Translations under genes and position numbers: made by a program
Notes under the pieces: generated by a model
Databases searched by the model: none
What the model saw: the letters and a program-made list of their open reading frames with translations, nothing else
Told to the model about the DNA's origin: nothing
Assembly: GCF_004010195.1 (NCBI RefSeq)
Contig: NC_057756.1
Location: forward strand, 4,371,603-4,423,523
Direction of reading: 5' to 3'
From: Chiloscyllium plagiosum
Lineage: Eukaryota
Length of the DNA: 51,921 nucleotides
Shown here: one piece after another, positions 1,540 through 51,921 of the stretch
Layout of the letters: every line of letters begins with the position of its first letter
Numbering within the stretch: the first letter of the stretch is position 1

Positions 1540-1554
1540 ACGAGAATTTGAAGG
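1540..1554 (+). CDS. micro-exon, 15 nt, (D)ENLK
   Basis: gatttgcag|ACGAGAATTTGAAGG|gtaagt; consensus donor. Confidence 0.65.
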
Positions 1555-4500: not shown

Positions 4501-7500
4501 AATAAATGATATAGTCCGACGTGGGCAATCTGCAGTGAATGTAGCTTGTACTGGAAAACAAATGCATAGCACTGTATACAGGATGTTGTGAGGTTCATAC
4601 AGTATGCGACATGCAGCACGAGCAAGAATTTCTTAATTTAATGTGCAATCAACTAAATTTGTCTGTGATCTTGACACTGGGAGAAAGTGAGGACTGTAGA
4701 TGCTGGAGATCAGAGCTGAAAATGTGTTGCTTGGGCTCATGGGACCAGTTCAGTCAGCCGTACCCTTCCACTGTCACCCTCCTTCGATTGACTGAACTGG
4801 TCCTCACTCTGAACAACTTCTCTTTTCAATACTTCCACTTCCTCCAAACCAAAGGAATCGCCATGGGCACCCGCATGGGCCCCAGCTATGCCTGCCTCTT
4901 CGTAGGATATGTGGAACAGTCCATCTTCCACAGCTACACTGGCACCACTCCCCACCTTTTCCTCTGCTACATCGATGATTGTCTCGGCGCTGCCACGTGC
5001 TCCCACGAGGAGGTTGAACAGTTCATCCACTTTACTAACACCTTCCACTCCGACCTCAAATTTACCTGGACCGTCTCAGACTCCACCCTCCCCTTCTTAG
5101 ACCTCTCCATTTTTATCTCAGGCGACCAAATCAACACGGAGATTTCCTATAAACCGACTAACGCCCACAGCTCCTCCTCCCACCCTGCCCCCTGTAAAAA
5201 CGCCATCCCATATTCCCAATTCCTTCGTCTCCGCCGCATCTGCTCCCAGGAGGACCAGTTTCAATACTGAACAATCCAGATGGCCTCCTTCTTCAAAGAC
5301 TGCAATTTCCCCCCAGACGTGATCGATGATGTTCTCCACCGCATCTCCTCCACTTCCCGCACCTCCGCCCTTGAGCCACGCCCCTCCAATCGCCACCAGG
5401 ACAGAACCCCACTTGTCCTCACCTATCACCCCACCAACCTCCATATACATTGTATCATTCGTCGTCATTTCCGCCACCTCCAAACAGACCTCATCACCAG
5501 GGATATATTTCCCTCCCCTCCACTATCAGCGTTCCGAAAAGACCACTCCCTCCGTGACTCCCTCGTCAGGNNNNNNNNNNNNNNNNNNNNNNNNNNNNNN
5601 NNNNNNNNNNNNNNNNNNNNNNNNNNNNNNNNNNNNNNNNNNNNNNNNNNNNNNNNNNNNNNNNNNNNNNNNNNNNNNNNNNNNNNNNNNNNNNNNNNNN
5701 NNNNNNNNNNNNNNNNNNNNNNNNNNNNNNNNNNNNNNNNNNNNNNNNNNNNNNNNNNNNNNNNNNNNNNNNNNNNNNNNNNNNNNNNNNNNNNNNNNNN
5801 NNNNNNNNNNNNNNNNNNNNNNNNNNNNNNNCTCCGGCCTATCACCCTCACCTTAACCTCCTTCCACCTATCGCATTTCCAACGCCCCTCCCCCAAGTCC
5901 CTCCTCCCTACCTTTTATCTTAGCCTGCTGGAAACACTTTCCTCATTCCTGAAGAAGGGCTCATGCCCGAAACGTCGATTCTCCTGCTCCTTGGATGCTG
6001 CCTGACCTGCTGCGCTTTTCCAGCAACACATTTTCAGCTGTGATCTTGACACACTCAGTGAGCAATAGAGGTAAATTATTCAATCGAAATGGCTGCCTGA
6101 AGCACAAATACTTCAGATTTGTCAACATCGTCATTGCAATGGAAATCATCAAATACTTGATTGAATCACTCTTTGGATTCTCGCAATTTTCATATCGTCA
6201 ATATAATTTATTGTTTCAGATACAATACATCAAATTTAAATTTATACAATACACAAGTGGTGATGTTATATTTTTTATGAGCATCCTTTCAAAAGTCAAG
6301 AAAAACTATGAAATCATAAACGATATTGTATGAACAATATCTGAACAAACTCAACAATTTTAATTAAATACATCAAATTTAATTGTCATGCTTCCTTCTC
6401 ACAGATGAACAGCTGAAAGCAAAGCAAAAAGGTTCACATTCCTATGATTCGAATAGCAAATTTGCTAACGTCGGAGAATTAATTTGAGAATTTTGTTTTG
6501 TCCTCACGTGACAGTTTGCATACTTCATGTGTGTTGATTAGTTAACATTAGTGCTGAGGCCAGAAACTTTTACACTTTTCTTGATCATCGCAAGGCTGTT
6601 GCATAAAAAAATTTATAGATCATGCACATTCTTGTGGGACTGGAGTCTTATGCACAGGTATTAAATTGTCTTCATTACAGAACATGAATAATACACACAA
6701 ATATTTCGCAGAAATGAGTTTAGCTTCGTGACGTTATTATTGGCGTTTGAATCTAAACGTTATAAATTCATTCAATATTTCTCTCGTGTTTATAGTGGAA
6801 TTCGTACTCAGATCATTATTCTGCATAAGACTTTCAATTTCAGTGGGATTACCATGATGATACCGTGCCGTTTTATTTTTGTGGACATTAATGTAAGACG
6901 CCAAAGTTGTGGGGGCGTTCAAACGACTAAAATGTTGGAAGACATTTCTCTTGTAGTGAAGCCAAATCAGGAACACTAAATATCAGATTATATTGGCACT
7001 GATAATATCTGTTCATACGTAAATGATGGGTATTTCTGCATGAGTGCTCGACACAAACATGCACAATTCCTAATCCTCTTCATCAACACTTCATGATCAA
7101 AGTTCACTTGCACCTGCCATACACAATAAAGGCGATATGGAAATGGCATTCATCAAATGTAAGTTAGATAGATGGAACAGGAGGAAGGAGAGATACCTGG
7201 GAATGCGAAGGGCAAGTTTATAGTAGGCAGAACATACATGTCCCAGCAGTAGACAATGATAATGGACGTGCGAGGGGAAAAATGTTTCTTGTGGGGTAGA
7301 TTGTGATTTGCAATTGTTCCTCCCAATGACCTTTCCTCTCCCTTCTAGCTTTTAAAACTCTGCTCTAATTTTCCCTACTCTTTGCTACATCAAGGTGCTC
7401 CTGGACCTTTCTCTTCCAACCTCGTTTTATTTGAAACTCCGTTCAAAGCCTGTCTTGGATCTTTCCTCTATTCCTTCCTCGCATCTTGCCTGGACTCATC

Positions 7501-10500
7501 AATCTTGCATTCAATCAGTTTGTTGGCGTAGGTGTTTTCACATTTTTTTCAAGGAAACAGTTTGCAATATTGTAATTTCCAATAAGGTGACGTGTTACTG
7601 AAGATGTGCGTCACAAATGCAATGTTTATTCTAATACGTAGATGTTAAGCATCCAAGTAGGGTGAACGTACGGTTCACCTTGTGACGAAAACTTTTATTT
7701 ATTCATTCCTTAAAAGCTCTTCCATAAATTATTTTTAAGAACGTACACTGTGTTTTAAAGTATGACATTGAACATGATTCACTTTAGTTTGTGGGCTGTT
7801 ATTTATAAGATTTTCACTCGACCTTTTACACGTGCAGATACTTTGCTGAACTCGGTGACAGCAGATGCTAGCAGAGCAACTGCGTGCAACTCATCTACAG
7901 AGGCGTAATCTATTTTCAACTACATACTGCATAATTTCCTTTGAATGAAGAGCTTTACAACTGTTTTTGCATAGATAAATATCGAAAACATTTATTCATT
8001 TTGTTCTTTCACAAAATTTCGAATGTAACGTTGCATTTGACAGTTTGCATTTCAAAAATAAGGTCTGCCACAAAGTATTTCCTGCGGCTGTTAGACATGT
8101 ACATTATTTGCAAAAGCATTTCAAAGCAATTTGGTATATCATCAAGAAATGCGAAATAAAAATGAACAAAAAATGTGAGCAAGCTATAAATTCAGTTGGT
8201 GAGGCAGATGATCAATATCTTCCCAAACTTGGGGGGAAAAAAGAAGTCGGGAACCAGATAAGTCAGTAACGTGGAACCTAACGTCTTGGAATATTATAGT
8301 ACTGTTACAAGTTGCAATTTAACAATAACTGACAGCTTTACATGGCGATCTCTCAGCTTCTCAGCATGGTGGTCTTTGGGTGACACATGGTGGTCTCTCA
8401 GCCTGTCATTGCGCCTGCATGGACCTCCAATCTCGAGGTGATAAAAGAACGATCTCCCACTTATGTGAACTCTGGGGTGAAGCCCAGTGCGGCATGGAAT
8501 CAAAGACTAGTATGGATGGAAGACTAGGGGCCGCCATGGACTGGGTTGGAAAAGAATTGTCCTGAACCTTTTCTTTCCTTCCCGTTATAATTTATTTCTA
8601 AAATCTGCAATGGTGGAGTTTTTTTCTTTCAATTTTCTTTTTCCAAGATCTGTAACTGGAAAATCTGCATCTAGGGACATTTCTACCCAAGGTTGTTCTT
8701 CATGTACACTTTCCATTGTGGTCATTTGAGTGTAGGTGACATTAAGTTAATTATGATTTGAAAGTCATAGTGCAACCAAAAGGAGAAGACAACTGGCAGC
8801 TTCGAAGTTTTCTGCAACTTCGAGATAGTATAGATTTGCAGATAGAAAATCATTTGTAAATTTCGTAATATGAAAATGAAGACGATTTTTTTTTTCAAAA
8901 AAGAACCAACACATGTCGGCAAGCACAAGGTTGGTAGTGAAGCATCACAGAAATGGACATTCAGTGTTATATTTAAATCTTCAAATTTATGGAGCGTACA
9001 TGTTTGTTGCCCACTCATCTGTTTTTGGAATGCATACTCCGAATTCACACCGCACCAGATTATATTCCAATAGGGTTATTTGAAGTGAGTTAACTTCATC
9101 TGATGAAGGAGCAGCAACTCGAAAACTTGTGATTTTAACTGATCTCTTGGAATACAAACTTTTGTCTACCTCAGTCCACTAGCGGTGCCTCCATATGGAA
9201 CTCATCAATAAACATAAATTGGAATGTAGTAGGATTCCAGTATCCAATGACATGGCCATTGTGTTAAGCAATTTCTTGCAGCAGTCGTGCTTTGAAAGAT
9301 TTATTTTTTTTCTAACATGTATCAGAGGTGGCAATCCAATTTTCCAGAATCCAGCATGCTGTCTTTAAAAGAGAACGACTGAAACACATTTTGAAACAGA
9401 AAACTACACTAAAGAAATTTCTGTTGTGGTGAACAAAAGCTTTCGAACGAGATGGAAAGGTGGTTTTGAGACAAAATGGTGGTTTCTCATTACGTGAAAA
9501 TTTTGATTTATTTTAAGAAGTACCAATTATCAGCACATTTAAAAGAGAGATAGACGGCAACTGAACAGCAAAATCTGAAGTGTATATTGAGTAACAGAAT
9601 TGGTAGAAGATGAAGCAATAATCGCAGATACATGCATTCACATAAGAAGGGTAGATTGATGTGTACAAAATATCATTATTGCGATAAAACAGATATCTTA
9701 TAAGAAGATAATTTCAGAGCAAAAGTTAAGTCAGCGTTTTTAAAAATTATCTGCCTATTTGTACATCCACAAAATGGACGCATGATAGACACTGTTGATC
9801 TGATGTTTTCATTTTCCTGTCCAAAGCGTGAGTGATCTCCCTGCAGTTGCTTTGAACTAAACAGAGTTGAAGGATTCTGGAACAGATTGTGGTGGGTTCA
9901 GATGAACCTAATACTTGATGCTATATTTCAGGGTTATGCTATATCGAATAATTCGAGTCAGATATTCATCTATGAACGTTAAGATATACAGTAATTTTCT
10001 ACCAACTTCCCTCGTCTAACAGGAAGAATGGAGAAAATGATAAAAGCAGATTCTGGAGATCAGCATCTAAAAGTGTGGTGATTTAAAAGGCAGCAATTAA
10101 GGCAGTATCCGAAGAGTAGCAGAATCGCCATTTCAGGCATAAGCTCATCATCGTGCGATAGACAGGTGCAAGTGAAGTGTGATGATGATAGCTTGGAGGA
10201 GAGAGTGGAGCAGCAAAGTCGGAAGGAAGGTGGGCAGGCAGAACAGTTCCAAGTCTGCATTTGATGGTAGGAACTGAGATGAGGTTGAGGGAGGGGCGTA
10301 AAGGAAACTGGTGGAGTCGACTTTAATGCCACGTGGATGGGAGCTCCATAGGTGTTCTTCCTCACGCATTTCAGGAAGCACCTCTGAGACACACGCACCA
10401 AACAAGCCCACTAACCTGTGCCCAATGACTTCAACTCTTCCTCCAACTTTGCCAAGTGCTGGACCTCCTTCACTGCCAAATTCAAGCCACCCAACACCTG

Positions 10501-13500
10501 GCGCAAGGACGCCTCATCTTCCAACTTGGGACTGGCAACCATACAGCATCAACATCGACTTCGCCAGTTTGTCCATTTCTACTCTCCTCACCTCACTCCA
10601 GATCCAACATTCCAACTCAGCAACACGCTCTTGAACTTGCCTATCTGTCCATCTTCCTTCCTACATATTTGCTCCACTCTTCCCTCCGACCTATCGCCAT
10701 CATCCCCAACTGGATTTGTGAATCGCCTACCCAGCTACCTTCCCGTCAACCCCAACCTCCTTTTTACCTTTTAGCCCCCTTCTCCACTCCACTCCACATT
10801 CCTTATGAAGGGTTTATGCCCAAAACGTCGCCTTTTTTTTTTGCTCGTATGCTGCCTGGTCTGCTGTGCTTGTCCAGCGTCATAGTTTTCGACCTTAACA
10901 GGAAGAATGCAACATTTAAAAAGAGGAGAAGTCATTTTGAATGTGTTAGTGTCTGCAGGGTGGCATAAGGAATAACAAATATCAATACTTTTCTGTTGAT
11001 ATTTCAGAGTTAAACGATTGTCAAGAACAACTAAAACAGCTAGGTAAATGAAAATAATTATTCTGTTGATTACATAGAGAATATTCAGACGTTCAAGGCT
11101 TTAGCAAATCTCTGCGAGAAGAGAAAACTGCGTACTTTCATTAGCATGTAGGTGGGAAATCGTATCGTGAGCATCATGCATCAAGGCCCATCTGTCAAAT
11201 GGGAACAGCATTCATCATTCTTTGTCTCAAGCAAATATCTGCACTGTGATTTAATGGGCTGATCTTAGACCCAATACTATTTTTTCCAGTATCTCTGCTA
11301 GGCATTTCAACATCTTATATCATGGAAGTTAATATTGGAAAGGAAACTAAACGAATGTAGAGAAATAACAAATCGCTAGCATCTGTTGATAACAAGAAAT
11401 GTGCATAATCATTAAAAAGAAATTAGGAGCAGCAGAATTAGAATCTGTTATTTGCTAGTAATGAACTTCTATGTAAACTCACCCTCCCACAAAGGATAGT
11501 ACCATATAACGACTTACAAATAAACCTGGAAATGTATTTCATGCACATGTGCGTATATTCTATAGTGGGCAGTTTGAATAACAAATAATAGTATAGAAAA
11601 AGAAGACTCAGCATTTATTTGGTTCTACTAACAAGAATCATTGCTGTCAGCCAAAGATAAATGTTGGTTGAATACGCGGTTCTCAATGAAATAGGTTCCA
11701 TTGTTTATGATGTATTCTGCATCTGTACCTCAACTAGAGTATTCATATCTGTCCGCATTTGATCATACACAAATTCTTCTCCTCTCAGCTGTAAGACTTC
11801 TCCTTTGAACATGCAACTTTTCGATACTCATTAATCTTTTTGTTGTGGTGCACAGATAAAATTAAAAAAGGTAAGGAACAGCAGCCACGATCTCAAACAC
11901 TAAATTGTAAAGTCAAAAGTTGAGATCATACAGTATTTCATTTGTAATCATCCTCATGACACAGTGCATTGAAGTTTAAACGAATTATATGAATATCAAT
12001 TTTCTCTGTAGATACTTCTGTTTTTGTCTTCTGTAAACTCTCTTATACTTCCTCACTTTCAGTCAATCCTCCAAGTTCGTTGCCTGCATGGTGTCATGGG
12101 TCACGGCTATGAAACCATTAATATAAACATGTTCATAAACTTTCTAACTTGCATCATTGTTCTTACAGTGCCCAGTGTTGCTAACGTGGAAACAGGGACA
12201 AAAAAAATGATATCACATCCATGCTCATCCCTTCAAAATGTGTCCTTGTAAAATCAATGAAAGTTTATTATTTGCTCCATGTTTGCCAATCTGCTTTGTT
12301 AATGTAATCAATTTTTGAAAATGTACCTGAACGACACTCAGAACATTAAAAATCCCTAAATGCTTTCCAGTTCTGTAATGTTGACTCTTGGATATTCTTG
12401 CAAAATGGAATATCTTACAACATTCTTAACTAACTTGCAGCATTATATAAACCTGAGGTCTACATAATGGTCTTTACTGCCCTTAGTGGACTTCATTTTG
12501 TATTTTAAAAATGTTAAAAATATACCCTGCATAATCACTTCTTCATGATAAATATTGGGAAAATACTATAAACGTGCTTTCAAAAGCTCAACACATGATG
12601 GGGTAAACGAAGCATATCCAAAAAATCTTGACAATTCTGTATCTACTGTCCGCCTTTCAGAACTGACGGGATGTCAAACATTTGTAAAGGAATTAGGTGA
12701 GCATCAGTCAGTTGTATTCTTTTTCAGCACATTGAAAGAAAGCTGAAAAAGCTCTCAATAATACATAAAATGATGTCATCTTCACCTATTAAAAATAGAC
12801 GGTGTGCCAACTGCACATTTTATTCTATCCATCAAAGTTAATTCAGTAATAATTTTTGATTCGTATTTCAGCACAAAACAAGAAATGATTTTTTTAAAAA
12901 CAACAATGAAACTACACACTGTACAGGAGTCATGAATCAATCCATGCACTTTTCGCTATTTGACCCGAAACAGAAGAAAAACTCAACTCGAAAGAAAAAG
13001 GTATTTCTTTTAGTTATTTAAGTTACAAAATAGTTACAAAAGAACAGCTTATGATTAACGAGTGTTTACTTCAGAGTTTCTTGTTTGGTTTAAAACGTGT
13101 TTACCAAAAGATAAATAAACTATACGTTACAGATAAAAACATCCAATTTACTGAATTTATGGTTGGAGTGGAAGGTGATTGCGCCTTCAGTTGTGTAACG
13201 GTGCTGCTCCTTTGACATTCTGTACTTCTTTTTAACGCGACCGTGAAGACAGATGTTCTAATATGTCTGGAATTATCCGCTTGAAAAGGAATTTATGTCT
13301 TTCTTTTAAAATGTTCGTACAATGGAAGCAAATGTCCGGTTCTCCCATTTAGGGTTTGGTTTGGTTTGGTTTTAGCAAACAGTTTGTTTGAAGCTGGTGG
13401 TCAAGTTTTAACTGAAGAAATTTTTTCTCTCTCTCTCTCTCTCTGTCTCTCTGCTCTCTCTCTCTGTCTGTCTCTCTCTGACATCTCTCCTGTAAAAACG

Positions 13501-16500
13501 TGTCTTTGGGTTTACTTTTTTTTTTGCCAAGGGAATGTTTATAGGGATGGTGCAAGTAATTGGAATGCCATCCTTAAGTTGTGAAAGAGGCAATTGCTTT
13601 TCAGAAAGGTCAATTTCTTCTAAATTCAGTTCTCTTTTGTTCGTGTTTCATTCAGTAATCTTTAATTAACTTCTGGTTTATTTAATATTAAGTGGTTGAC
13701 CAGCTGTATCACTGCTGGAATGTCCGCTGTACACCAGTTTACAACAAAGAAAAACGTTACGTCCTGGATTACCATCTTCAGATATTTTGAGGGGATGTGA
13801 CCTGGTCCTTAACAGTTGGAAATCAACAACAAAGGTTCGAGGAAGCACTTTTAATATAAGTTTTTTTTTAAATTGTTTCAGGAATTTCGTGTGCATTTTG
13901 CCTCAGCGGTTTACACTGGTGCCTCACAATGCCAGGGACCTGGTTTCGACTCCAGCCTCGGGCGAATGTCTGTGTAAAGTTTGTACATTCTCCCAGTATC
14001 TATGTTGCTTTCTTACGGGTGCTACGGTTTCCTCCTACAGTCTGAACATGTGCAGTTTAGGTGAATTGGCCATGCTAAGTTACCTATCGTGTTCTAGGAT
14101 GTGATGGTTAGTTGCATTAAATCAGGTGTAAAAGGATAGGGAAATTGGGCTGCCTGGGATACACTTTGGGGTATCGGTATGGATGTGTTGGGCCAAATGG
14201 CCTACTTTCACACTGCAGGGATTCTATGATTCCATGGTTCTGTGAATACATGAATTGTAATGTTTTACTCTTACTTTTTCGAAGGTATTTGCAAATAAAT
14301 TTTAAGGTTTTAACTTTGACAGCTTTGCAGATATGCTGGTACATGAATTTTAATTTATTCATACCACTTTAAGGAAGTTAACTTCAATTATTTGCATGAG
14401 TTTGCAATAATAAAAGATGTGTATATGTCCATGCACTTAAGTAAAGTTTGTGAAGCCCATTTTGTTTCTTATTATTGCTGGAAACCCTACAGTCTGCAAT
14501 TTGTCTTCTTAGTGCTATGGTAGAAATATGGCAAATAATGATTAATCGCATTTTTTTTCTTCTTGAACGAATGGGAAGCAATATGCATTTGAGCTAGGCC
14601 AACGATAATCAGAAACTTTAAGAAATAACTTTTGTACTCCTTGTCTTGTAGTGTTATGTTCTCACTGAAGTGATGAAATGTCTCCTTCAGCCAGCCAGTT
14701 GGAGAAAAAGTTTGAGTTATCCCTAGCTGCATCATTTTGAATCTACGCCAGCATAATCATGAGTGAGCTTTGTCAGTCTCACAGAGACCGACCCAAAAGG
14801 ATGTTGATTTTGCTTTCAGTTGGTACTTGCTTTAGGAGGTTGGAGATGAAGGGTTGGGGTCTCTGCTGCTAGAGTGAAGTTTTAGACAAAGAGACTTCCT
14901 CTGAAAATACGTCTCTTTTTTTTTTCCTTTTCTTTCAACTGGAATGGAGAGAAACAGTACAGGAGAATAATGAATGTGTTTGACTACCTTTGCCAAATGT
15001 TTGTGTTTGTGATGTTGTTTATTTTGGAATACTTGATAAATGGTTATTAATTAACACCTAACTTTGTTTAGTATCACAATGGAGTAAAGTTACGACAAAT
15101 CTCTTTTTTTGGTGTATTTTAACTGTGTTGTAAGAATAATGTTTGGTTGGTAAAATTTTCGTGATAGACTAATAGAATCATATCTGAAATATTTGAGCTA
15201 ATACACTTAGGCGGGCCTAGTCTATTCTGGTCCATAACAACTCTCTGATATGATCTAATAACGAGTTAATTAATCATTTGAGAAGAAATAAAGCAGAAAA
15301 TGGCAGGATAGTATGAAAATGGTAAGTTCGAAAGTGGAATATACAATCACATTTGAAGTGATCTGATCTAGGTGTCGGTTTCTATAAAATAAGAGAGATA
15401 CTGGGCGTGTTTGAAGCGGATGGAGTTGTTTGGGACAGGAATTCGCGTTGTGCTGAATGGGAAATAATAACTGACATTTCAAATTCTGCTATTACAGATC
15501 TTGTAACTTGCAAAGAAACTGTCAAGAATTTAGGTGGGGAATGATTCCATTCGCTTTATATCACTGCTGCTTAATATCACTGTTAAACTTGAATCTTTCT
15601 AAAAATAAGACAGGTGAAAAATATTCACATCACAACTGTAGTTTTGTCCAGATCACAGAATCGTTCACAACAAGGTGCATTTTTATAACTGGTGTTCATT
15701 GTTTCCTTCTTCTATGAAATTACCATATCTCCTGAATGTTTCCCTCACAAGCGTGTATACCAACGTTCCCAGTTATGTGGTTTGTTGCTCCAAACCAATT
15801 TTGTTTTCATAATTAGCTTAAATAAGCAAACCTCTGAAGATTAACTTTTTAAACCGTGGCATCAGTTGAATATGCCAGACTTTCTTTCAGCATCACCGAC
15901 GGTAATAATTTCGAGGTCTTGTCTATTTTAACTAGAGGGTGTTCAAATTTGAGTATATAATAATTGCATTCGGAATCCGTACAGTATATATCCTTTGAAA
16001 CCTAAACGTGTTTCAAAGATTTTGCCAAGGCGCCTTCTTGTATATGGATACTTACATCGCTGAATACATATTAAAATTATTTTGATCAAATGTCCATTGA
16101 TATCTGTATGTTGAGAAAGAAAGATTCAGCAATAGTCACCATCAATAGTAAATCAAGAATAATATGGAGTTGACTCTCAAACGATTCACTATGGCTGTGA
16201 AAATTGGTGAAAATTATCCACGGTGCCTTGCCCTCAGCCTTTGAAGTAGAAGAGGTTTCACTCAAGTCCTACTTCTGAAACTGGTTTTTGATGCTCTTGT
16301 TCAGATAAAATTGTCAAAAATTGCAATTTGCAATTCCAAACAAACAATCACATGTAACAGTAGGATTCATTGGCATTCAACTATATGGTATAAAAAAACG
16401 GATTACCTGAGTGCAGCTCGTTTCAGTGCCATGTTGTCACTGTCGCGAGTTAGCTAAACTGGGGCCTAATTCCTTTAAACATGAATCGTTATGTCCTGAC

Positions 16501-19500
16501 ACATTTGTTTCTGTCTTCCATGTCGAAAATAGGGAAGATCATTATTTATAATGTACATGATCACGTTAAGAATTTGCAGAGAAACGTCCTTGAAAATATA
16601 AGTTTAATACTACCAAGTTACAATGCTAAACTAACGCGATATCAGTTTGGGTTCTGTAAAGATAATGCTGACAAAATTACAATTGCATTCAAAAGTAAAT
16701 TATCTACAATTTATCGTGCCTTGTCAACAGAGCAAAGGCTTGCAGACAAAGATAAAGGTAGGCATTTTTTTTTTTAAAAAAAGAGGCCTTTAAATTTACA
16801 CTTGTTTTAAAATGTATTTCGAAGTAGGTGCAACGAAATTGAACAGAAAATGAAGTGGGAAACTTTTTTCAATTATATCAAAATTGTAAAAAATATAGAA
16901 GACATGCAAAGATAATGCAAGATAAGTCGTAACACTCTTCATGATGAGATATATCATTAATGGTCAAGTAATGGCCCAGTGGTGTCATCACTGGTCTGTT
17001 AATCCAGAGTCCCAGAAAATGCTTTGGGGAGCTAGGTTCGCAGATGGTGAAATTCAGTTTCAAAAATGGAATTTTACGTCTAAATATGAGAAGGAAACGC
17101 TTGTAAGTAACAAAAAAATAAATAAATCTGCCATCCTTACCTGGTCTGGCCTCCATGTGACTCCAGAGCCTCAACAAAGTGATTAAATCGTCACTGCCCC
17201 CGGGAAAACATGGATGGATTTTTAAAAATCCTGGCCTAGTCGGCAATGCCCACATTCCCTGAATGAATTAAATGTAATGAATCCAACTTCGAAATGAATG
17301 TTTCAATCGAACGAAAAATGAATGATGAGAATGTGGAACTTGTCGCTGAATGATCTGAAGGGGAATTATAGGGAAACAAACTCGGAACTAAATGAGGGGG
17401 AAATTGTTCACCCATACTTTCAGATTAATTAGGATATGTAGGAATCATTTATGTTCTATAAAGACGCAGGGAGCAGATGTGATGTAACTTCGGCATTGCA
17501 CAGTATGTGTTATTTGTTTTTCCTATGAACAGCAGAGCTACAATTTATAAGGGTTGGTTCAGAGTCATTCACGAAAGGAATGTCATTTTATTCACATCTA
17601 AAAGAAAAGCAGTTTTCACTGCCACAAACAGGATGCATACTTTCCTGCATTTTGCCTTATATTCCTCTACATTAAACGATGCAGCAAATATTATCAACTG
17701 TATTAGTAACATCGGTTCTTTTTTTCTGATGGAGAAGGATGTGTTTTCTAGGTCAGATACGTAGGCAGGATTGTGCTGATAATCCGCCACCATTACCATG
17801 ACATTTCTGGATTGGAATTGCATTTGCCAAGTTAAGACTTTATATATTTGAGCAGCATTGCATGATAGAATCAACAAAATCTGAAGATATGACCAATCGA
17901 ATGATAATGTTCCACTCCAAAAAGTATTTAGTGTGCACCTGAGAGGAGATGAAATGAAAAAGATGGGGAAACGGCGTCTCATTCATCCTGCGTTGTGAAT
18001 TCACAATTATAAATTACCTATCCACACGTGTCCAAAAAAATTATTTCGTACGTAAATCGACTGTCGAAATGATAGTTGCATAATGTAAACCATATTTCGG
18101 GAATCAAATCAAGTCTATAAAAATATATGCTTTCCAAGTGCGATTTTTAACCTGATTGCCAAATCAATATCAATTCTGCAAGAAGATATAAAGCGATTCT
18201 GAACACCTCCTCGGCAAGATCACTGCCAAAATGTAATTGTCATTTGAACTAAAAGTCAAAACACTTGAAATGAACAATCTTCTTTTTTTTTTAGAAGTTG
18301 TTGAATTTCAGAAGACATGCAGTAAGTAATTGATAGTCTAACAAGAAAACAAGTGTGTAAAACATCTTGTAAAAGCATGTAGAATGCACATTGGCTTTGA
18401 CAAAGCCGTTTATTTCACGTATAAAAATAAGCAGAATAAAACCCTAGAAAATACTTGCTGTTTTATGTTGTCAATTATAATCTCTGAGACACAATATTAT
18501 CTGAAATTTGAAAGTTTCGGCAAAATTGTCATCTGCATCCCATTCAACACATCAGCTGCGTGACTTCAAATTTACAGAAATATGGAAGCAAATTATGGCA
18601 TTAAACTGAAATGAATGCTGCAGTTCTGTAAATTTGCGGAATGGTTTTGAAAGATATAATAGTTTCTGGAGCAGAACAAAAGAGTTTAAGAAAGGAATAA
18701 GACAAAGAGAAATATCGACTCTAGCAGAACGCTCATCCCATAATATAAAATAAATGTTTCTACAAGTTTGCTCAGAGAAACACAGTAACAATAACTAATT
18801 TCTGGAAATGGATCAAACAATAAGACGATGGCTAACGACTTTTATTTTGCTTTCATCGTGACTTTGTGGTGATGGGAGAGATGTGAGAGGGAAACTACGT
18901 TAGAAAAAGTAGGAGAGCAAGCATGATATTCCATAAGTCAATTGCTGCGATTGATGATGAACGTGCCAAATAGAATTGCTCAGAGTACTTGTGATTTTAT
19001 GTGATGCTATCATCACTAAGACAAAGATAATATTACAAACAAAAGATCTGAAAGACGTGTGAAGAAATCCATTTTTTAATTTGAAATTTTTGGAAATAAT
19101 ATGTAACTTGCTACGTATGAGTTTTGAGAAGTAGGGAATATCGAATAACTTAAAAATGTATGTTGAATAGGCATACAACTGGAACAAGCCTGCAAGTTTG
19201 CTGTCGTTGCAATTAGGTTCGATTTGATTATTCTATGGAATGCCAGCTTTGACATTATCGACAAAAATGTATTCTTCCGAGTCAAAGTGATATTTAGGCA
19301 TGATGGGACCATGACAAAAATAAGGTTCCCCAAATTGCTTTATGTGGTAGTTTAATGCAAGTAAATTATTAATTGTTTTCGCTGGAGAGCAACAATTACT
19401 CCCCCTTTGAACAAAACTTCCACTGTCACGAACGACCTTAGAATTTGTTTTTGCTGTAAAGGAAGCACTTTTTTTTTCATTTTGGGTGTTGTTATCACTT

Positions 19501-34500: not shown

Positions 34501-37500
34501 GAAATATTCCATGTGTAAATGTATGTTTCTTTTACAGGTATCAATAAGCTGAAGGAAAGTCTTAACAGTATTGGTAAGTGCAACATTTATTTTATGGTCT
34601 GCCTAGCAGGCTAATGCAAGAAAACGCTATGCAAAACGGATAAAATGACCTCAATGCAAGATGAAGCACATAAGTTATGAATAACGTTTTAAAATATACT
34701 ATTCTTACTCGCTGCTTAATCCACAAGAATAATGTGTTGCAAATGAGAAATACAAGTTTCATACATCTATAACGAACTTTTTTTTTTATTTTCATGTGGA
34801 CGTCATTGCCCTGTATTATATTTAGTGCAATGAGGCATTCCTGGTCTGATGGGTTCAAAACTACAATCTCGCCACTCAAATTGAAGCTCATGGATTACAC
34901 ACATTTGCCAACTTGATTATGCCATCGAGACCATCAAGTGTTCCTCCAGTATGTCAATAATGCTGCACAATTTTTCTCCCTACATCTACTCTGACCTCAG
35001 TGGTAGAAATATGTCAGTATACAGCGCTAACTCAGATTGGAGAAGGCCGTCATTCTCCGTGACTGGATGCAAATCACATTCCTGTTCATTACAATGTGAC
35101 AAAATTATAGCGTTCATAATCCAAAGACAGGTTTATTCCTTATTAGATTAGAGGTATGTGATTGCATCGCCTTCAATGGAGATTTTCGCTGCCCATCGAG
35201 AAGTGTTCAATAGAATACATTCTTTCTCAACACATCACCATTTGTTAACGTTCAATACTTTTGAAATATCACCCATATGTGGAGTAATGCGTGGACCTTA
35301 TGTTATGAAGTCTACCACTAAGAGAGACTGAATGCTGTTCTGAACTGAGAGACTACAATCACCAGTGATGACAAGATAGCAGACCCAGCATGTAATGGAA
35401 AAAACATATATGTAACGTTTGCCTGTGAAATGGATGGCTGAATTGTTTGCTGTTTTCACAACACTTCGAATTTAAACAGTCAGTTTAAATTATGCCCAGA
35501 GATTCTAAATCCCAATCAAATTTGAATTAATTGTTTGCCAACATCGAATCAATGGGACGATCCGATTCTGGGGATATGAAATGTAGGCATTTTGAAAATC
35601 GGACAGAGCAATTGCTATTAACACAATCCAAGAAAGGAGGAATTCTGTCTATCAAAGGAAAGTGTTCATTTGAAACATATTCGCAGTTAAAAGGAAGAAG
35701 ACAACTTCGGGAGACTTTCAGCTGGAAGGAGACAAACACCAAAGACGACGGACACTGTGTCGTTTTGAAATTAAGTTGATGCCATCTTAATTGATGTTTT
35801 ATTGGAACAATATATGTTGTGGAGTTGAAGATAGAAAATAAAATTTAAGAGAAAGGGGGCGGTGAATAGTTAATGTTTAATGTTCACGTTCACAGTTTAA
35901 AAAGAAACTAATGTTATTTTCATTAAATAGTGAAATTTGGGGAGTTCACGGCCACTCAGGTTTTATGGATTACGAGGCGAGTTGAGCTTTTCTGAATGTT
36001 TGGTTTAATTAACAGAAGGGTCCACTGCCGTGGAACAACAGTAGCCAAATGGATGGGGTAGTGGGAGGAATGAGAACTGGACTTTAAGCACAGTGTCTTA
36101 TTTGACAATTGCTTCAAAATGCGATTTGCGAGCAGTGAAATTGTGTCCTTGATGAAGTCGCAGTCAAATTTATTTTCAGGATGTGTGCTAGTCCTGCATG
36201 CATAGAAATCTCATTATGATGAAGAACAAATGATCATTTCTGCTCGATTTTTTGTGAGTCGAAATAACGTAAAAGCAAAGACTTTCTTTTCCTCACATTG
36301 GACAGATGGATATTATATTGTACTGCTACACGAGTATGTGGGTGGGACTGTTGCTTTTCTGGAGGTGACTCACAGGATAAGAAAGGTTGATTCAGCATTT
36401 TCTCCAAAGATGCTACCCGACGTGCTGAGTTTTTTTTTCAGCAATTGCTGATTATTGTTTGTTTAGAACTGATGCTACTGTTTTCAATTCAGCGAATTAC
36501 ACTTTTGAATTCTGGCTCTGTTGAAACGCATGCCTTCAGATATCTTTATCTTCTTGTCGTGTTCTTTTCTCGTAAAAGAATATCCCACTTCAAGTACATT
36601 GGGCCACTGTGCATTCACAAAGTGTCAGAGAGTCATACAGCACAGAGACAGACTCTTCAGTCCAACTCGTCCATGCAGACCAGGTACACTAAACTAACTA
36701 ATCCTATTTCCCTGCGTTCAACCCATAAAACTTTGAACTTTTCCTATTCGTGTACATATCTGCATGTCTACATGTCTTTTTACAGTTGTAATTCTACCCA
36801 ACAGTGGAATTACAGTTGGGTAGAATTACAGTCGTTGGGCAGTGCATTCCATACAGGAACCACATACTATGTGAAAATATATGCCTCAGGTCTCATTAAA
36901 ATGTTTCCCCACTCGCTTTAAAATAATGCTCACAAGTTTTGGACCCTTGGAAAACTATCTTGTTTGTTCACGTTATCAGTGGAACTCTTGATTTTATCAA
37001 TCTCCTAAATCTCAGGTAAAAGCTTCCCAGGCTATCAAACCTCACCTTGTACCTCAGAATTACTAGTTATGACCACAACATGTTTTACTCTATTCTTTGT
37101 TTTTTAACATTCTTCCTATAGCAGAGCGAACAGAATCAGATGTCGTTTTCCAAAGGTGGCCTTACCAATGTCTTGTATAGCCAAAATATGATGTCCCAAC
37201 ATCTAGAGTTAATGTTCTCATCAATGGTAACAAGCTAGCCAAGTGTTTTATTCAAAATACTGTCATCCTACAATAACACTTTCAGGGAACCACGTGGCAT
37301 GCTCCCCTCAGTCCCTCTCTTTAATAATACACCCCAACGCCTGGCCATTAACTATGCAATTTCTGTCCGATTTGCCTAATGTTTGAAGATTGCAAGGAAA
37401 GTTAGAATAACCGAATCCCTACAGTGCATAAGAGGCTATTTGGAGCAAGGATCTGCTCCAAACGCCGAAAAGCATCCACCTAGGCATAGACCACACCTTA

Positions 37501-46500: not shown

Positions 46501-48428
46501 CTTCGTTTAGATGATTACATTGTCAAACGTATTTGGACCACATTTCGTTCGGAACCAGATCTGTTAAAGGAACTCTCGCAGGATCTTGACGTACACTAAC
46601 TTAAAGTTGTAAAAGTCACTGCCTCAAATAAGAGGATCGATGTAAATTTCCAAAGACCAGTAATTGAAATAATAATCAGCTGTCCCCAAAGTTTATTTTC
46701 TGTTGATGATATGTTGAAATAGAGTGCAATATAGAAGGACAGTGTTTGGAAAGTAAAAGTTCTGTCAGAAAATGGCAGTAACTTGATGTCATGATAAGCT
46801 TTGCCAAATTTAACCTTGCAAAGACAGTTGTGACTACCTTGTCCGTTCGACTAGGCCATACCATACGCTGTCAAGAGGGAAAAATGCATTCATTTGTGCA
46901 TTTTCACATTATGAACACTAAGTGGGCAACAATAGGTTTATTTATCGATGAGTTATTTCGAGAAAAAAGGTGTAAGATCACTAATACAAATGACCAATGA
47001 ACAGGTGCATTCTAAACAACATCTAGGTAATATGTTATGTGTGCATAAAGAACTTTTCAGGAGTAAAATGCCAGTTTGTTGATAAACCAATGTTGACTGC
47101 TTGGAATTTGTTAATGCGTTCAAGGTGGAGACCTATGAAAGTGACCTGGAATAAATGCTTGCTATAAAGGGATAATTTGAACAAAGAGAGAAACACCTTC
47201 ACACCAATTGAGAAAACTTATGTCAACTCTCGTGCACATACAATCAAGTGAAATAAAGAAACCCAAAGCCTTTGTTTTTCATTCTTGCAGGTAACATTGA
47301 GTGTGATATATTCAGGAGTCTCAAAAACGAATATTCCAAGATATGTTAGGCAGATGACGTTTATGAAGTGCAATCTCAACTGGAGAGAATAAATTTCAAA
47401 AACTGGTACATTTTGTTAGATAGTCTTGAAGCAGGTTCAGCAGGAAGTATAAAACAAACGAGTTGAGATAGTAAAATACTTCCCTAACATTTGGGAAGCT
47501 TTACAGTCAAGTAATAATATCATCCGAACTCTGTAATCTCTATCTTTGAAGAATGAATAACGCAACAACAAATTGATTGGATTTAACATCCTGAAGTTAT
47601 GGATTTTACCAGAATCTTGAAACAACTGCAGGGCTTCGAAATCGACTATTGTAGGATATCAAAAGAAAGACAAATCAAATAATTGAACACTTACGGATGT
47701 TTTCCAACAGAGGGAAACATACTGCAGTAAGCGTTTTGACCCAATGAATCTTGGGTGACTGACAAAACAAGGAGGTGAATACATGCTGCTGAAGATTTTG
47801 AACATGTTGGAAATCTTCAATGGAAAGTTTCAGAGATATTATGAAAGAATGACTTGAAAAACAAAAGCTTCAAAATAAAACAAAACAAAGTATTACCTCT
47901 TCAAAACAAAAGTTCACAGCTTGGCAAAGTAAAAGATCCTGCAGAGGACTTCTAGTCTCCTCAGCCTCCATTGATTTGGAGTAAACAACTCGTGTTAAAT
48001 CGCAAAAAAAAAGCAAAGTGAAAGGAAATATGCACTTGGACTTTGCAACTTCAACGTCATGTGCAATATTACTAAAGTTAAATGAGAGCAAAAAAAACAA
48101 TTTTCTTGGAACATTTTGAAATAGTCCATGTCACTTCGGAAATTGTTAACTTTTTGATCTTGGTTTCATTCTCTTCTTTTCGCAGAAATAAAACTTTTAT
48201 TGTTTTGCTTGGTTTCCTTTTTTAATTTGATATTTCATTGATTTCATTTATGTTCTTCTATACACTCTAACTTAAATGTCAGCTTTCATCAAAACATTGG
48301 TGAAACCATATTTGAAGTTAAAGGCTTTTGATTCTTTGCTTGAGTATTTTATTAGTTGTGATGAAGATAATATCACTTAGTTTTACATATTCTCCAAACA
48401 GAGCTAAAACTACGTGAAAAAAACAAGG
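1540..48428 (+). CDS. Internal part of an unidentified multi-micro-exon gene encoding a long coiled coil with a 21-aa repeat (span; exons listed separately)
   Basis: 16-17 AG..GT-bounded segments with lengths divisible by 3, all phase 1 and on the same strand. They mostly alternate between 27 and 36 nt and join without a stop into an E/K/L-rich heptad sequence. Confidence 0.8.
2781..2856 (-). pseudogene. Degenerate tRNA-Pro(TGG)-like sequence
   Basis: Reverse strand reads ggagcATGATTCTCACTTTGG-aggatgataggaatcc-AGGGGTCTCAAGTTCAAATCCTGGcacaag, resembling vertebrate tRNA-Pro (ATGATTCTCGCTTTGG..GGTCCCGGGTTCAAATCCCGG); stems are disrupted. Confidence 0.6.
2861..2927 (-). pseudogene. Second tRNA-like or SINE-head remnant with Pol III A/B boxes
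   Basis: Reverse strand has TGGTGTAGTGG (A box) followed by GGTTTCGACCCC (B-box-like). Confidence 0.4.
4422..4427 (+). CDS. candidate 6-nt micro-exon, EC
   Basis: tactcag|AGTGTG|gtaagt; with the 15-nt exon it completes one heptad (DENLKEC), matching the LQEC/LEDC endings of other exons; weak pyrimidine tract. Confidence 0.35.
5571..5831. other. Assembly gap (261 N) inside the Penelope element
   Basis: Run of N. Confidence 0.99.
5944..5982 (+). ncRNA. Minimal type I hammerhead ribozyme motif in the Penelope terminal repeat
   Basis: CTGAAGA-a-GGGC-tcat-GCCC-GAAAC-GTC: both core boxes, helix II, palindromic ACGT helix III and a GUC site. Confidence 0.7.
6405..6431 (+). CDS. micro-exon, 27 nt, DEQLKAKQK
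   Basis: cttccttctcacag|ATGAACAGCTGAAAGCAAAGCAAAAAG|gttcac; donor weak, peptide fits the xxxLxxKxK class. Confidence 0.7.
9090..9200 (+). mobile_element. Decayed Penelope terminus of another family with an eroded hammerhead motif
   Basis: CTGATGA-ag-GAG-cagcaa-CTC-GAAA at 9100-9124. Confidence 0.5.
10031..10895 (+). mobile_element. Older Penelope deletion derivative (inverted 5' part, end of endonuclease, 3' terminus)
   Basis: RLIFQLGT and QPYSINIDF remnants; inverted terminus at 10031-10150; 14-bp flanking duplication taacaggaagaatg at 10017-10030 and 10896-10909. Confidence 0.85.
11008..11043 (+). CDS. micro-exon, 36 nt, ELNDCQEQLKQL
   Basis: atttcag|AGTTAAACGATTGTCAAGAACAACTAAAACAGCTAG|gtaaat. 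Confidence 0.8.
11856..11870 (+). CDS. micro-exon, 15 nt, DKIKK
   Basis: ctttttgttgtggtgcacag|ATAAAATTAAAAAAG|gtaagg; sits between two 36-nt exons where a 27-nt-class exon is expected. Confidence 0.6.
12661..12696 (+). CDS. micro-exon, 36 nt, ELTGCQTFVKEL
   Basis: cgcctttcag|AACTGACGGGATGTCAAACATTTGTAAAGGAATTAG|gtgagc. Confidence 0.8.
12974..13000 (+). CDS. micro-exon, 27 nt, EEKLNSKEK
   Basis: aaacag|AAGAAAAACTCAACTCGAAAGAAAAAG|gtattt. Confidence 0.75.
13330..13814 (+). mobile_element. Possible solo-LTR remnant
   Basis: Ends ctggtccttAACA, similar to ctggtccataACA at 15239 and taccataACA at 27575; 5' boundary unclear. Confidence 0.3.
13426..13488. repeat. Imperfect (CT)n microsatellite
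   Basis: ctctctctct...ctgtctctctctg. Confidence 0.9.
13893..14236 (+). mobile_element. tRNA-derived SINE, HE1-like
   Basis: tRNA head (cctcacaatgccagggacctggtttcgactcc), central tttgtacattctccc..ggtttcctcc domain, LINE-derived tail ending gggattctatgattc. Confidence 0.8.
14650..15239 (+). mobile_element. Possible solo-LTR remnant
   Basis: Starts near TGTTATG and ends ctggtccatAACA (TG..CA with a short tgttatg/cataaca inverted terminus). Confidence 0.35.
15498..15533 (+). CDS. micro-exon, 36 nt, DLVTCKETVKNL
   Basis: ttctgctattacag|ATCTTGTAACTTGCAAAGAAACTGTCAAGAATTTAG|gtgggg. Confidence 0.8.
16731..16757 (+). CDS. micro-exon, 27 nt, EQRLADKDK
   Basis: ccttgtcaacag|AGCAAAGGCTTGCAGACAAAGATAAAG|gtaggc. 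Confidence 0.8.
16970..17272 (+). mobile_element. Old tRNA-derived SINE
   Basis: TGGCCCAGTGG A box, GGTTCG B box, body ctgccatccttacctggtctggcctccatgtgactccaga, tail gcccacattccctgaatgaattaaa. Confidence 0.65.
18295..18321 (+). CDS. micro-exon, 27 nt, EVVEFQKTC (shortened member of the 36-nt class)
   Basis: long poly-T tract then ag|AAGTTGTTGAATTTCAGAAGACATGCA|gtaagt. Confidence 0.7.
19690..19956. mobile_element. Fold-back Penelope-type short element of a second family with a hammerhead motif
   Basis: 19713-19772 is inverted relative to 19898-19954; the minus strand of 19751-19791 reads GCA-CTGAGGA-t-GTCACCT-agac-AGGGGAC-GAAAC-GTT-TGC. Confidence 0.8.
20200..20690 (-). mobile_element. CR1-type LINE 3' fragment
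   Basis: Minus-strand peptide IRGNLIETYRILN..GKMFPL..RTWEHNHRVK, typical of the CR1 ORF2 C-terminus, plus a 3' tail. Confidence 0.75.
20886..20912 (+). CDS. micro-exon, 27 nt, (K/E)VELEKKES
   Basis: atctttttgcag|AAGTTGAGCTCGAGAAGAAAGAATCAG|gtgaac. Confidence 0.75.
21270..21523 (+). mobile_element. CR1/HER1-type LINE 3' end
   Basis: Encodes YKGDIRGSFFTQRVVNA; ends in a (TTCTATG)n tail. Confidence 0.8.
21723..21758 (+). CDS. micro-exon, 36 nt, EIGDFKTKLQEC
   Basis: ttcactttgtag|AAATCGGAGACTTCAAGACTAAACTTCAAGAGTGCG|gtgaga. Confidence 0.85.
23531..23557 (+). CDS. micro-exon, 27 nt, DEKLKEKTK
   Basis: ttttacttcttggcag|ATGAGAAATTAAAGGAGAAAACAAAAG|gtgatg. Confidence 0.8.
23996..24095 (-). mobile_element. 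Penelope terminal fragment
   Basis: ggagaaagtgaggactgcagatgctggagatcag..aaaagcacagcaggtcaggcagtatccaagaagcaggagaatc matches 4680-4730 and the reverse complement of about 1278-1375. Confidence 0.85.
25815..25902 (+). mobile_element. LINE/SINE 3' tail fragment
   Basis: gggtcagtgtggacttgttgggcggaagggtttgtttccacactgtaag followed by a degenerate (taatc)n tail. Confidence 0.65.
26710..27575 (+). mobile_element. Possible solo-LTR remnant
   Basis: Ends taccatAACA; composition resembles the 13.3 kb and 14.7 kb segments; boundaries approximate. Confidence 0.25.
28946..28981 (+). CDS. micro-exon, 36 nt, EINTLKSELEDC
   Basis: tttattcaacag|AAATAAACACACTGAAAAGTGAACTTGAAGACTGTG|gtaagt. Confidence 0.85.
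30780..30806 (+). CDS. micro-exon, 27 nt, ELKFANKEK
   Basis: cttttctttcag|AGCTTAAGTTTGCAAACAAAGAAAAGG|gtaaag. Confidence 0.8.
31420..33430 (-). mobile_element. Older CR1-type LINE fragment interrupted by a younger copy
   Basis: 3' tail at about 31420; RT homology runs to about 32580 and resumes at 33381 (RRKSCFTNLIE). Confidence 0.75.
32582..33380 (-). mobile_element. Younger 5'-truncated CR1/HER1-type LINE
   Basis: KWQMECNSDKCVVLHFGK, RDLGVKVH, LEYCIRFWSPSYKKDVVKLESVQ and SRTRGHRFRVRRERYKRDLRGNIF in the minus-strand ORFs. Confidence 0.9.
34538..34573 (+). CDS. micro-exon, 36 nt, GINKLKESLNSI
   Basis: tttcttttacag|GTATCAATAAGCTGAAGGAAAGTCTTAACAGTATTG|gtaagt. Confidence 0.85.
36625..37380 (-). 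mobile_element. Decayed CR1-type LINE 3' portion
   Basis: agagtcatacagcacagagacagactcttcagtccaactcgtccatgcagacc tail, colinear with 31420-32140 and 32582-33330. Confidence 0.75.
37403..37530 (-). mobile_element. HE1-like SINE 3' fragment
   Basis: gaatccctacagtg..ccacacc..ccatgtaaccccgcattt is a diverged reverse complement of 14100-14230. Confidence 0.55.
38300..41450 (+). mobile_element. Long, heavily decayed CR1-type LINE (APE endonuclease, RT and 3' tail)
   Basis: FNARS, WDIIAITE, GGVAF, YFRPPNS, FHFPNID, SLVCKLLEGLLRDRI, DLSKAFD and SKFDD remnants in colinear order, with many stops. Confidence 0.85.
42011..43099 (+). repeat. Tandem duplication of about 540 bp (42011-42550 and 42551-43099) including part of an old CR1 3' region that continues to about 43480
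   Basis: Shared anchors such as atcttttctccccagtaatttgcaacaatgaac, gttaagagcaaagttatacg, atatataaaatgttagt and gctaatttct. Confidence 0.9.
48402..48428 (+). CDS. micro-exon, 27 nt, ELKLREKNK
   Basis: ttctccaaacag|AGCTAAAACTACGTGAAAAAAACAAGG|gtaagt. Confidence 0.85.
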
Positions 48429-49514
48429 GTAAGTAACCGAATGGATTTGATAAATAAATTAAAATTTGGGGAATTAATATCAAATCAAATCAAAGTACTT
48501 ACTCTTCACCTGGAACTTTGATTATATTATTTGTGTCACTTACTTAAAAGCATTATGACGCAGAAAAGAAAGGATTTTAAAAAAATATTTTAATTTGAAC
48601 AGTCACTACAGAAAATCATAATCAGGAATACAGCAGTTTATGTATTTGACCTTCAGTCGAATCTTAAACAGATTCTCTTTCAGGTCGGCAATGTCCAAAC
48701 GCCAGGTGTTCATTGATAGTCATTGATTTTTTTTGTTCAATGATCACTTCAATTTTTATTCGTGAAAATGGACACTAAGTTTTCCATTTTCAGAAAATTG
48801 GGAACATCACTAACAATGCCAAATTGCTTAATTGACTGAATTCAAATTCCTTCACTTATCTTCCAGCTTATGAAAATTTAATGACAGGGACTAAATTTGT
48901 TCAAATTTTCATTCGGTTGAAGACATATTCAGCTGTATTTTACTTCAAAGAATATCATTAGGTGACATGTTATGGGGAATTTACTTGGACGTGAGAGATT
49001 ATTATCTTTCATACTCTTTGTGCACAATCATTTGTTGGGAAATATTTCAGAAATTTTCACGCTCCTAAAAGCATCTAAGGGGATAATCATTTGTGATCTT
49101 CAAAGCAAACTCTCTTCTCCATGATTTTCAAAATATGCGCAAACATTTTCCAATAAGTCAATATAGGACCAAAAGAGAAGCGTTAAGCCATTCAGAATCC
49201 TTTCATCTCCATGGCTTTCTCACCATAATTGTTCAGTTTCATCCGTCACATTGTGAATAGCTATTTCCACAGCACTTGCCGTCATTTGTAGCCCGAATTG
49301 AATTATTGTCAAACAAATATATACTTGCATATCCTTTAGTTAGGTGTTCCATCCAGTAGGACAAAATTCCCTTCCTAATTACTTTCTGATCTCCTAAGCT
49401 TCCTCACTGCTGAATTCATTCACAAAAATCGTTATCTTCATTTAGAAATCTGTTCTCTCTTTGTGGTTACACAGGCAGGAGAATATAATTTCTGGATATG
49501 TTCTATATTTTACT

Positions 49515-51659: not shown

Positions 51660-51921
51660 AAGACAATAGACAATCGGTGCAGGTGTAGTCCATTCTGCCC
51701 TTCGATCCAACATCACCATTCATTATGATCATGGCTGATCATCCTCAATTAGTATCCTGTTCCTGCCTTATCCCCATAACCCTTGATTCCACTATCCTGA
51801 AGAGCTCTATCCAACTCTTTCTTGAAAGTATCCAGAGACTTGGCCTCGACAGCTTTCTGGGTCAGAGCATTCCATACACCCACCACTCTCTGGGTGAAGA
51901 GGTTTCTCCTCAACTTAGTGA
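51660..51921 (-). mobile_element. LINE 3' end (CR1-type), running off the window
   Basis: Similar to 20200-20450; cattccatacacccaccactctctgggtgaaga is the reverse complement of an FTQRVVGVWNAL-coding segment. Confidence 0.75.

Follow-up and report, generated by a model that had tools for sequence, protein, structure and literature searches.

Results and discussion

The short exons of the DNA analysed here are probably mini-exons of one very large cartilaginous-fish gene, whose predicted product is a long parallel coiled-coil rod, likely of two chains, with a B30.2/SPRY domain at its tip and a lysine at heptad position d that is likely to partner Asp or Glu; this reading was drawn from sequence. 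The window, that is, the whole stretch analysed, comprises 51,921 nucleotides of contig NC_057756.1 (C47, positions 4,371,603-4,423,523) of the 3.56-Gb genome of Chiloscyllium plagiosum; positions outside the window are counted from its position 1 and are given with a sign.

Mini-exons in the window

The initial annotation had described seven 27-nt and six 36-nt exon candidates with particular residues, and all of them were present, in phase 1 and with AG/GT ends. In window order, the 27-nt candidates (starting at 6405, 12974, 16731, 20886, 23531, 30780 and 48402) have L, L, L, L, L, F and L at position 4 and K at position 7 (7/7). The 36-nt candidates (starting at 11008, 12661, 15498, 21723, 28946 and 34538), when numbered within the 21-residue unit, have L, L, L, I, I and I at position 11, C, C, C, F, L and L at position 14, L, V, V, L, L and L at position 18, and L, L, L, C, C and I at position 21. 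The modules found beyond that list were 15-nt exons at 1540 and 11856 and 27-nt exons of the 36-nt type at 18295 and, weakly, at 9865. The features of the window are as follows.

1540..1554, + strand: 15-nt phase-1 exon candidate, shortened 27-nt type (score 12.3), outside the range covered by the initial annotation
6405..6431, + strand: 27-nt exon, heptad e-f-g-a-b-c-d-e-f, Lys at d, weak donor
9865..9891, + strand: 27-nt candidate of the 36-nt type, weak (score 5.3) and left out of the counts
11008..11043, + strand: 36-nt exon, heptad g-a-b-c-d-e-f-g-a-b-c-d, Cys at the first d
11856..11870, + strand: 15-nt exon, forming with exon 12661 a 17-residue unit, predicted stammer
12661..12696, + strand: 36-nt exon, Cys at the first d
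12974..13000, + strand: 27-nt exon, Lys at d; DNA run X1 differs by a synonymous change
15498..15533, + strand: 36-nt exon, Cys at the first d
16731..16757, + strand: 27-nt exon, Lys at d
18295..18321, + strand: 27-nt exon of the 36-nt type (score 6.7), forming with exon 16731 an 18-residue (7+11) unit, predicted stutter
20886..20912, + strand: 27-nt exon, Lys at d
21723..21758, + strand: 36-nt exon, Cys at the last d
23531..23557, + strand: 27-nt exon, Lys at d
28946..28981, + strand: 36-nt exon, Cys at the last d
30780..30806, + strand: 27-nt exon, Phe at a, Lys at d
34538..34573, + strand: 36-nt exon without Cys
48402..48428, + strand: 27-nt exon, Lys at d; a copy lies at +73189

An untrained exon scan of the window gave 13 rows on the + strand versus 1 on the - strand. 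Between the window copies, pairwise identity was 0.38 and 0.26 at third codon positions (near background), 0.68 and 0.59 at second codon positions, and 0.27-0.33 in the intron flanks. Since third positions are near background while second positions are kept, the exon copies appear to be old and conserved as protein. When 15 window exons were spliced in silico, hydropathy peaked at a period of 3.5, which was matched by 0 of 2000 shuffles; in a strict 72-residue sub-run the top peak was at 2.35, and the 3.3-3.75 band had p=0.0065. Exon 18295 showed a V/I difference at heptad a in DNA run X1, and the donor of exon 6405 scores poorly (-6.3).

It had been proposed that a 27-nt and a 36-nt exon together make exactly three heptads. 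This holds for 5 of the 7 27-nt exons, which are followed by a 36-nt exon within the window (4 of 7 if candidate 9865 is real), and the 36-nt partner of a sixth lies outside the window. The strict pair covers only 5/7 units because of the additional 15-nt exons and exon 18295. The resulting 18- and 17-residue units correspond to the stutter and the stammer, which are established coiled-coil geometry.

Several other elements were seen in and around the window. Window 4545-5570 holds a reverse-transcriptase-like ORF fragment beside an N gap, which by its look we take to be from a Penelope-type element. The 13.8-kb intron between exons 34538 and 48402 contains decayed LINE-like sequence (~38,600-41,400), presumably CR1-like, and two tandem copies of ~545 bp, 78-84% identical, lie in this long intron (42013-43111). 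At an upstream locus (-676,689..-675,343), a transposase-like ORF of 357 aa, which we assume to be hAT-like, and its continuation are intronic.

Host array and terminal SPRY exon

The window exons belong to a much larger + strand array of ~2.3 Mb (about 2.34 Mb), which was traced back to about C47 2.24 Mb. In the 1.3 Mb read contiguously, 165 non-overlapping candidates were kept: 44 27-nt exons of type A, 47 36-nt exons, 43 21-nt exons, 11 27-nt exons of type B and 20 others. This set consists of 164 candidates scoring >10.5 and of exon 18295, which was added by hand; the duplicate at +73189 was dropped. Candidates scoring at least 10 numbered 160 on the + strand versus 6 on the - strand over 1.3-1.45 Mb, with length peaks at 21, 27 and 36. 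The exon model was trained on 106 hand-picked seeds and is partly circular; the held-out loci repeat the same pattern. The array is built of four alternating blocks (21-nt, 27/36, 21-nt, 27/36), its upstream reach being taken from sparse sampling. At two upstream loci (-1,032,384 and -906,804), micro-exons have GC instead of GT donors. In exon-pattern searches, one pattern matched just three C47 sites and another none.

The terminal B30.2/SPRY exon was located at C47:4,577,499-4,578,019 (window +205,897), 154 kb downstream of the window, and its structure model (mean pLDDT 62) matched the fold of PRY-SPRY domains. A SPRY profile run on 39,854 ORFs gave only the three known exons as significant, and no second family SPRY exon for the + array was found between C47 1.30 and 4.58 Mb. 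Ig-like exons of a neighbouring gene lie downstream of the SPRY exon on the - strand (L037:7645-7944 and L029:6333-6656); the former matches I-set/Ig_3, and many C2-set matches occur further along C47.

Scaled up to 2.34 Mb, the density of 165 exons in 1.3 Mb would give one gene with ~300 exons encoding 2,700-2,800 residues, predicted to be spliced into one transcript. The full in-silico splice of the 165 candidates contained one stop; this and 29 out-of-register junctions among 99 indicate that some exons are missed, false or alternative. Gene boundaries in C47 2.34-3.27 Mb could be missed, since 68% of the 2.35-Mb span was read. It is unlikely, in our estimation, that the array represents several genes or partly decayed exons, with the run of Lys at position 7 (Lys7) being a relic of block duplication plus purine-rich enhancer composition without a structural role. 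The four alternating blocks, the weak donor at 6405 and the RNA data would fit such a state: neither exon coverage nor a splice joint was found in 2-6% of two runs and one contig set, a sample that says little about expression; the reads of runs X5 and X7 on window 10500-30400 all came from repeats, run X6 aligned nothing, and the SPRY exon drew no reads. Against it, third codon positions are saturated while second positions are kept, and the + array yielded a single SPRY exon.

Heptad register and core cysteines

The register was set so that g is the first position of the 36-nt and 21-nt exons and e that of the type A 27-nt exons. The initial annotation had placed unit positions 4/11/18 and 7/14/21 in the a/d core, and the 134 classed exons support this assignment: a is LIVFM in 81%, and d is LIVFM in 37%, Cys in 19%, K/R in 20% and D/E in 2%. 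D/E make up 1-2% at a and d versus 20-60% at the other heptad positions. Hydrophobicity at position 4 of the 27-nt exons (100%) is circular, as that position was used for classing them; in 45 held-out exons, a is hydrophobic in 93% and Cys is at d in 6 of 7 cases. Within the 27/36 block, 70/99 junctions are in register, compared with a mean of 44 and a maximum of 61 after shuffling. Residues 1-7 of the 36-nt exons agree with the consensus of the 21-nt exons, whose Leu at a is also present in the final seven residues of the 27-nt exons; the 27+36 pair thus resembles three heptads, the middle one being interrupted by an intron.

A splice junction joining G to A makes the first residue Asp or Glu, and this residue lands on heptad g or e; the splice consensus would thus supply acidic e/g residues for salt bridges. 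The first-heptad g/e pairs were acid-base in 41/90 and acid-acid in 9/90, the acid at g coming largely from this junction and the first-residue call assuming a G. These patterns point to a likely two-chain parallel rod. A single-sequence model of the catshark homolog P0179 was nearly all long helix before the SPRY domain (mean pLDDT 55), and a homodimer prediction for residues 396-540 of P0054, a homolog standing in for the window protein, scored 0.13 against a mark of 0.32.

The recurrent core Cys noted earlier is the strongest single result: 35 of the 36 Cys in the 134 classed exons fall at predicted d, and 5 of the 6 window 36-nt exons have exactly one Cys at d. Any functional role is putative, and a disulfide or metal role would depend on the compartment. 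This placement would suit a secreted form of the rod, locked by interchain disulfides between the Cys at d as a fibre or extracellular scaffold, or else a trimer with three-Cys metal sites; chicken BG chains are disulfide-linked dimers, as the available portion of PMC4046983 describes. We regard this alternative as rather doubtful. Metal binding, which the initial annotation had also raised, appears unsupported by anything seen in sequence: the Cys of each chain are at least 7 residues apart, so a dimer layer would offer only two thiols. The bearing of the N-terminal exons on secretion is given below.

Core lysine

Lys at position 7, described as invariant, is so in the window (7/7) but not gene-wide, where the 44 type A exons have K in 23, C in 7, Q in 4 and A in 4, with L also occurring. 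The 27-nt exons of the window are part of a cluster of 12 Lys7 exons in a row (p=0.0015). In the sister gene (see below), position 7 of 12 type A exons is K in 5, C in 2 and R in 2. Lys7 is an old family consensus, common across cartilaginous fishes (chimaera, catshark, ray and skate) rather than invariant.

D/E occur at position 7 in 1/44 exons; the remaining internal positions outside the core have them in 5-18. The residue after Lys7 is D/E in 13/23 exons, versus 3/21 of those without Lys7 (Fisher p=0.005; five control positions, p at least 0.3), and the same Lys-acid coupling was seen in seven homolog proteins, six of them with motif matches (22/35 vs 4/20, p=0.004); these tests overstate independence, as the exons are related by descent. 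The side chain at d packs next to e' of the partner chain in a parallel dimer, which is established geometry, and the coupling of Lys at d with an acid at e may therefore be read as a d-e' salt bridge. In the Nek2 parallel zipper, K/R at d have snorkelling side chains that reach out of the core, according to the available text of PMC3149346, and an interface Lys affects the choice of dimer in BTN3A in the accessible part of PMC10665462. A register-fixing role of Lys7, as had been suggested, is plausible from such patterns.

The clustering of Lys7 along the gene and the equal frequency of Lys at position 9 (25/44 vs 23/44) fit the relic-and-composition account given above, and the latter argues for some compositional effect. 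Glu codons, however, are as purine-rich as Lys codons and yet nearly absent at position 7, and the Lys-acid motif recurs in the chimaera and catshark homologs and in the sister gene, which speaks against a relic.

Duplication of modules

The initial annotation held that the exon pair, and not the single exon, was the unit of duplication. The 27+36 pair is a common module but not the only one. One recent 27/36 duplication spans a pair, and the excess of in-register junctions points the same way; on the other side stand the 43 single-heptad 21-nt exons, the 11 truncated exons of the 36-nt type and isoform differences of a single 9-residue block. Flank homology is still shared by 11 exon pairs, one in the 27/36 blocks and ten in the 21-nt blocks. 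The 27/36 duplicate (79-86% identical) begins immediately after the 27-nt exon at -78,980 and extends beyond the 36-nt exon at -69,879, and its second copy resumes past an N gap (-68,397..-67,898) with the same post-exon intron; the pair was therefore probably duplicated, with its 27-nt exon hidden in the gap. RefSeq isoform models of the homologs, which are models only, differ by single blocks of 9 residues (three comparisons), 6 or 18, and two chimaera models differ by blocks including 9 and 12 residues.

Window 47020-51921 and +71,807..+76,708 (4,902 bp, 99.96% identical) flank N gaps and are likely a false duplication in the assembly. The copy at +73189, which lies inside this 4.9-kb repeat across an N gap, was rejected as a real extra exon and is likely an assembly artefact.

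The 5' end and N-terminal domains

A short ATG exon near C47:2,229,660 is a candidate start only; a signal-like ORF near -681,750 was rejected as the start, as it lies mid-block. A signal-peptide scan over 2.0 Mb gave 7 matches on the + strand and 1 on the - strand, by eye mostly polypyrimidine read-throughs or repeat ends, and no convincing signal-peptide exon was found at this gene's 5' end. Two of seven homolog models (P0054 and P0161) start with a hydrophobic stretch, which favours a secreted rod, and five start hydrophilic, which like the scan disfavours it; residues 1-332 of P0054 had no match in the Chiloscyllium plagiosum genome.

Among 441 ORFs of at least 72 aa in the head-to-head 5' interval, Pfam gave only transposon-type or sub-threshold matches, and neither Ig, RING nor B-box was found (of two Ig control ORFs, one was picked up). 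No match to a profile of 15 butyrophilin ectodomains occurred on the + strand in the 39,854 ORFs covered (68% of the span, with N gaps near the 5' end), and no RING or B-box was found by tblastn, Pfam or a profile of 40 TRIM N-termini in the same + strand ORFs. Matches to PF22705 were on contig C37 and elsewhere, none on C47. At the 5' end, crude scans for a transmembrane (TM) exon ahead of the heptad exons gave no large hydrophobic exon that was convincing.

These searches bear on an alternative that we consider highly improbable, in which the array encodes the cytoplasmic tail for a true butyrophilin or BG-type receptor and the Ig and membrane exons of that receptor have escaped detection. 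Heptad mini-exons followed by a B30.2 exon are the plan of the butyrophilin tail in the available portions of PMC6790196 and PMC4046983. BTN3A1 is also the best solved-structure match of the family profile (E 9e-30; TRIM21, 3e-25). The absence of Ig, RING and B-box from the ORFs searched, the empty ectodomain search and the separation of the SPRY clade from Ig-bearing proteins stand against it. Two known types were rejected as candidates on the 68% of the span read: the classical butyrophilin (IgV (+IgC) exons not found, SPRY not nested among butyrophilin B30.2 domains) and TRIM (RBCC-B30.2; N-terminal RING and B-box not found). The chicken BG type does not fit either: 21-nt exons are present, but IgV was not found here and a SPRY exon ends the array.

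A chondrichthyan family

The nearest single-domain homologs are models from Callorhinchus, Scyliorhinus, Leucoraja, Narcine and Cetorhinus, all chondrichthyan, and have SPRY (with weak PRY) only, in a coil + SPRY build with no Ig or RING match. The homolog models and four Chiloscyllium plagiosum SPRY exons formed one clade (FastTree support 1.00) apart from RING- or Ig-bearing proteins, in a midpoint-rooted tree of 94 of 174 domains in which Ig was labelled by motif only and neither P0179 nor the SPRY at C47:1,297k, which failed the motif filter, was included. The SPRY domains thus appear to be a chondrichthyan clade separate from the sampled butyrophilins and TRIMs. Both a SPRY domain in this clade and upstream phase-1 heptad exons of 21, 27 or 36 nt were found, as expected of a chondrichthyan microexon coil-B30.2 family. 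A profile search for longer members was crowded by TRIM and BTN proteins, and P0179 was the only addition among three inspected.

On the - strand, head to head with this array, is a sister array (C47 about 1,296,600-2,130,000, ~0.83 Mb) whose SPRY exon is at 1.297 Mb. Upstream mini-exon candidates also accompany three more SPRY exons of the family, one at C47:985,201-995,200 (0.995 Mb) and two on C37, which carries most of the SPRY and butyrophilin IgC matches. No description of a coil-B30.2 microexon family was found in the literature consulted; the supplements of PMC12841164, which possibly list chondrichthyan sequences, were outside that scope.

Proposed function

Under the preferred reading, hundreds of mini-exons would be spliced to encode a long parallel two-chain rod with B30.2/SPRY domains at the tip. 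One core Lys per 21 residues would reach out of the core to Asp or Glu on the partner chain, which would fix parallel in-register alignment and leave the rod only moderately stable. In an oxidising compartment, and only there, paired Cys at d would cross-link the chains; elsewhere they would serve as small residues in the core. In a parallel zipper, such a pair can form a disulfide when oxidised and is destabilising when reduced (available text of PMC3149346). Skipping of a 27+36 pair would keep the register and skipping of a single exon would create a discontinuity. The rod may serve as a length-adjustable spacer for the binding domain.

A bolder version, which we offer only tentatively, is one 2.3-Mb gene with ~300 mini-exons for a ~400 nm rod tuned exon by exon, in which a code of three heptads (Leu core, cross-linking Cys layer, Lys-acid register lock) would have been kept since the chimaera-shark split; the product would be a structural or immune scaffold of an undescribed kind, possibly secreted and disulfide-stapled. 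For comparison, dystrophin spans ~2.3 Mb and titin has ~360 exons; if expressed as predicted, the present gene would be among the longest and most exon-rich of vertebrates, and ORF-based annotation would be blind to it. The ~130 classed repeat modules would be a natural library for core Cys, core Lys and their charge partners. The heptad arithmetic by itself is ordinary coiled-coil biology.

Comparison with known systems

Among cartilaginous fishes, the Callorhinchus model XP_042192744.1 ('nuclear-pore anchor-like', 1,697 aa) shares the coil + SPRY build and the 9/12-residue modules, as do, with coil + SPRY only, Scyliorhinus XP_038672308.1 and P0179, Narcine XP_069775385.1 and Leucoraja XP_055510696.1. 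These RefSeq models share an L-x-x-K-D/E-x-E-I/L motif and the SPRY clade (P0179 was not in the tree), carry automatic names (TRIM-like, A33-like) and are far shorter than the predicted product of the array. The enterophilins combine an extended leucine zipper with B30.2, and are mammalian and much shorter than the predicted shark rod. A link of enterophilin to SNX1 was found in the literature.

The Nek2 leucine zipper has Leu at a and Lys/Arg at d, is parallel and may form an interchain disulfide through Cys at d, in the available text of PMC3149346; Nek2 is an unrelated kinase with six heptads, and is a biophysical precedent only. Chicken BG genes and the zipper protein have a long coiled-coil tail of many 21-nt exons (13-36 per gene) with alternative splicing in the tail, and form dimers; BG also has an IgV and a TM (available portion of PMC4046983). 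Unlike chicken BG as described there, the array has a B30.2 end, 27/36-nt modules besides 21-nt ones and about ten times more exons, and IgV and TM were not found. Butyrophilins (BTN/BTNL) have short heptad exons before a terminal B30.2 exon in the accessible parts of PMC6790196 and PMC12841164, and a coiled coil with the interface Lys mentioned above (PMC10665462). The array differs from them in that IgV, IgC and TM exons were not found, in having hundreds of heptad exons over megabases rather than a few, and in its own SPRY clade. By analogy with what the available text of PMC6790196, PMC4046983 and PMC12841164 describes, the array would resemble a butyrophilin or BG tail in its working plan, and the 'heptad per exon' design would then include a receptor-less family, which in this analysis was seen in cartilaginous fishes only.
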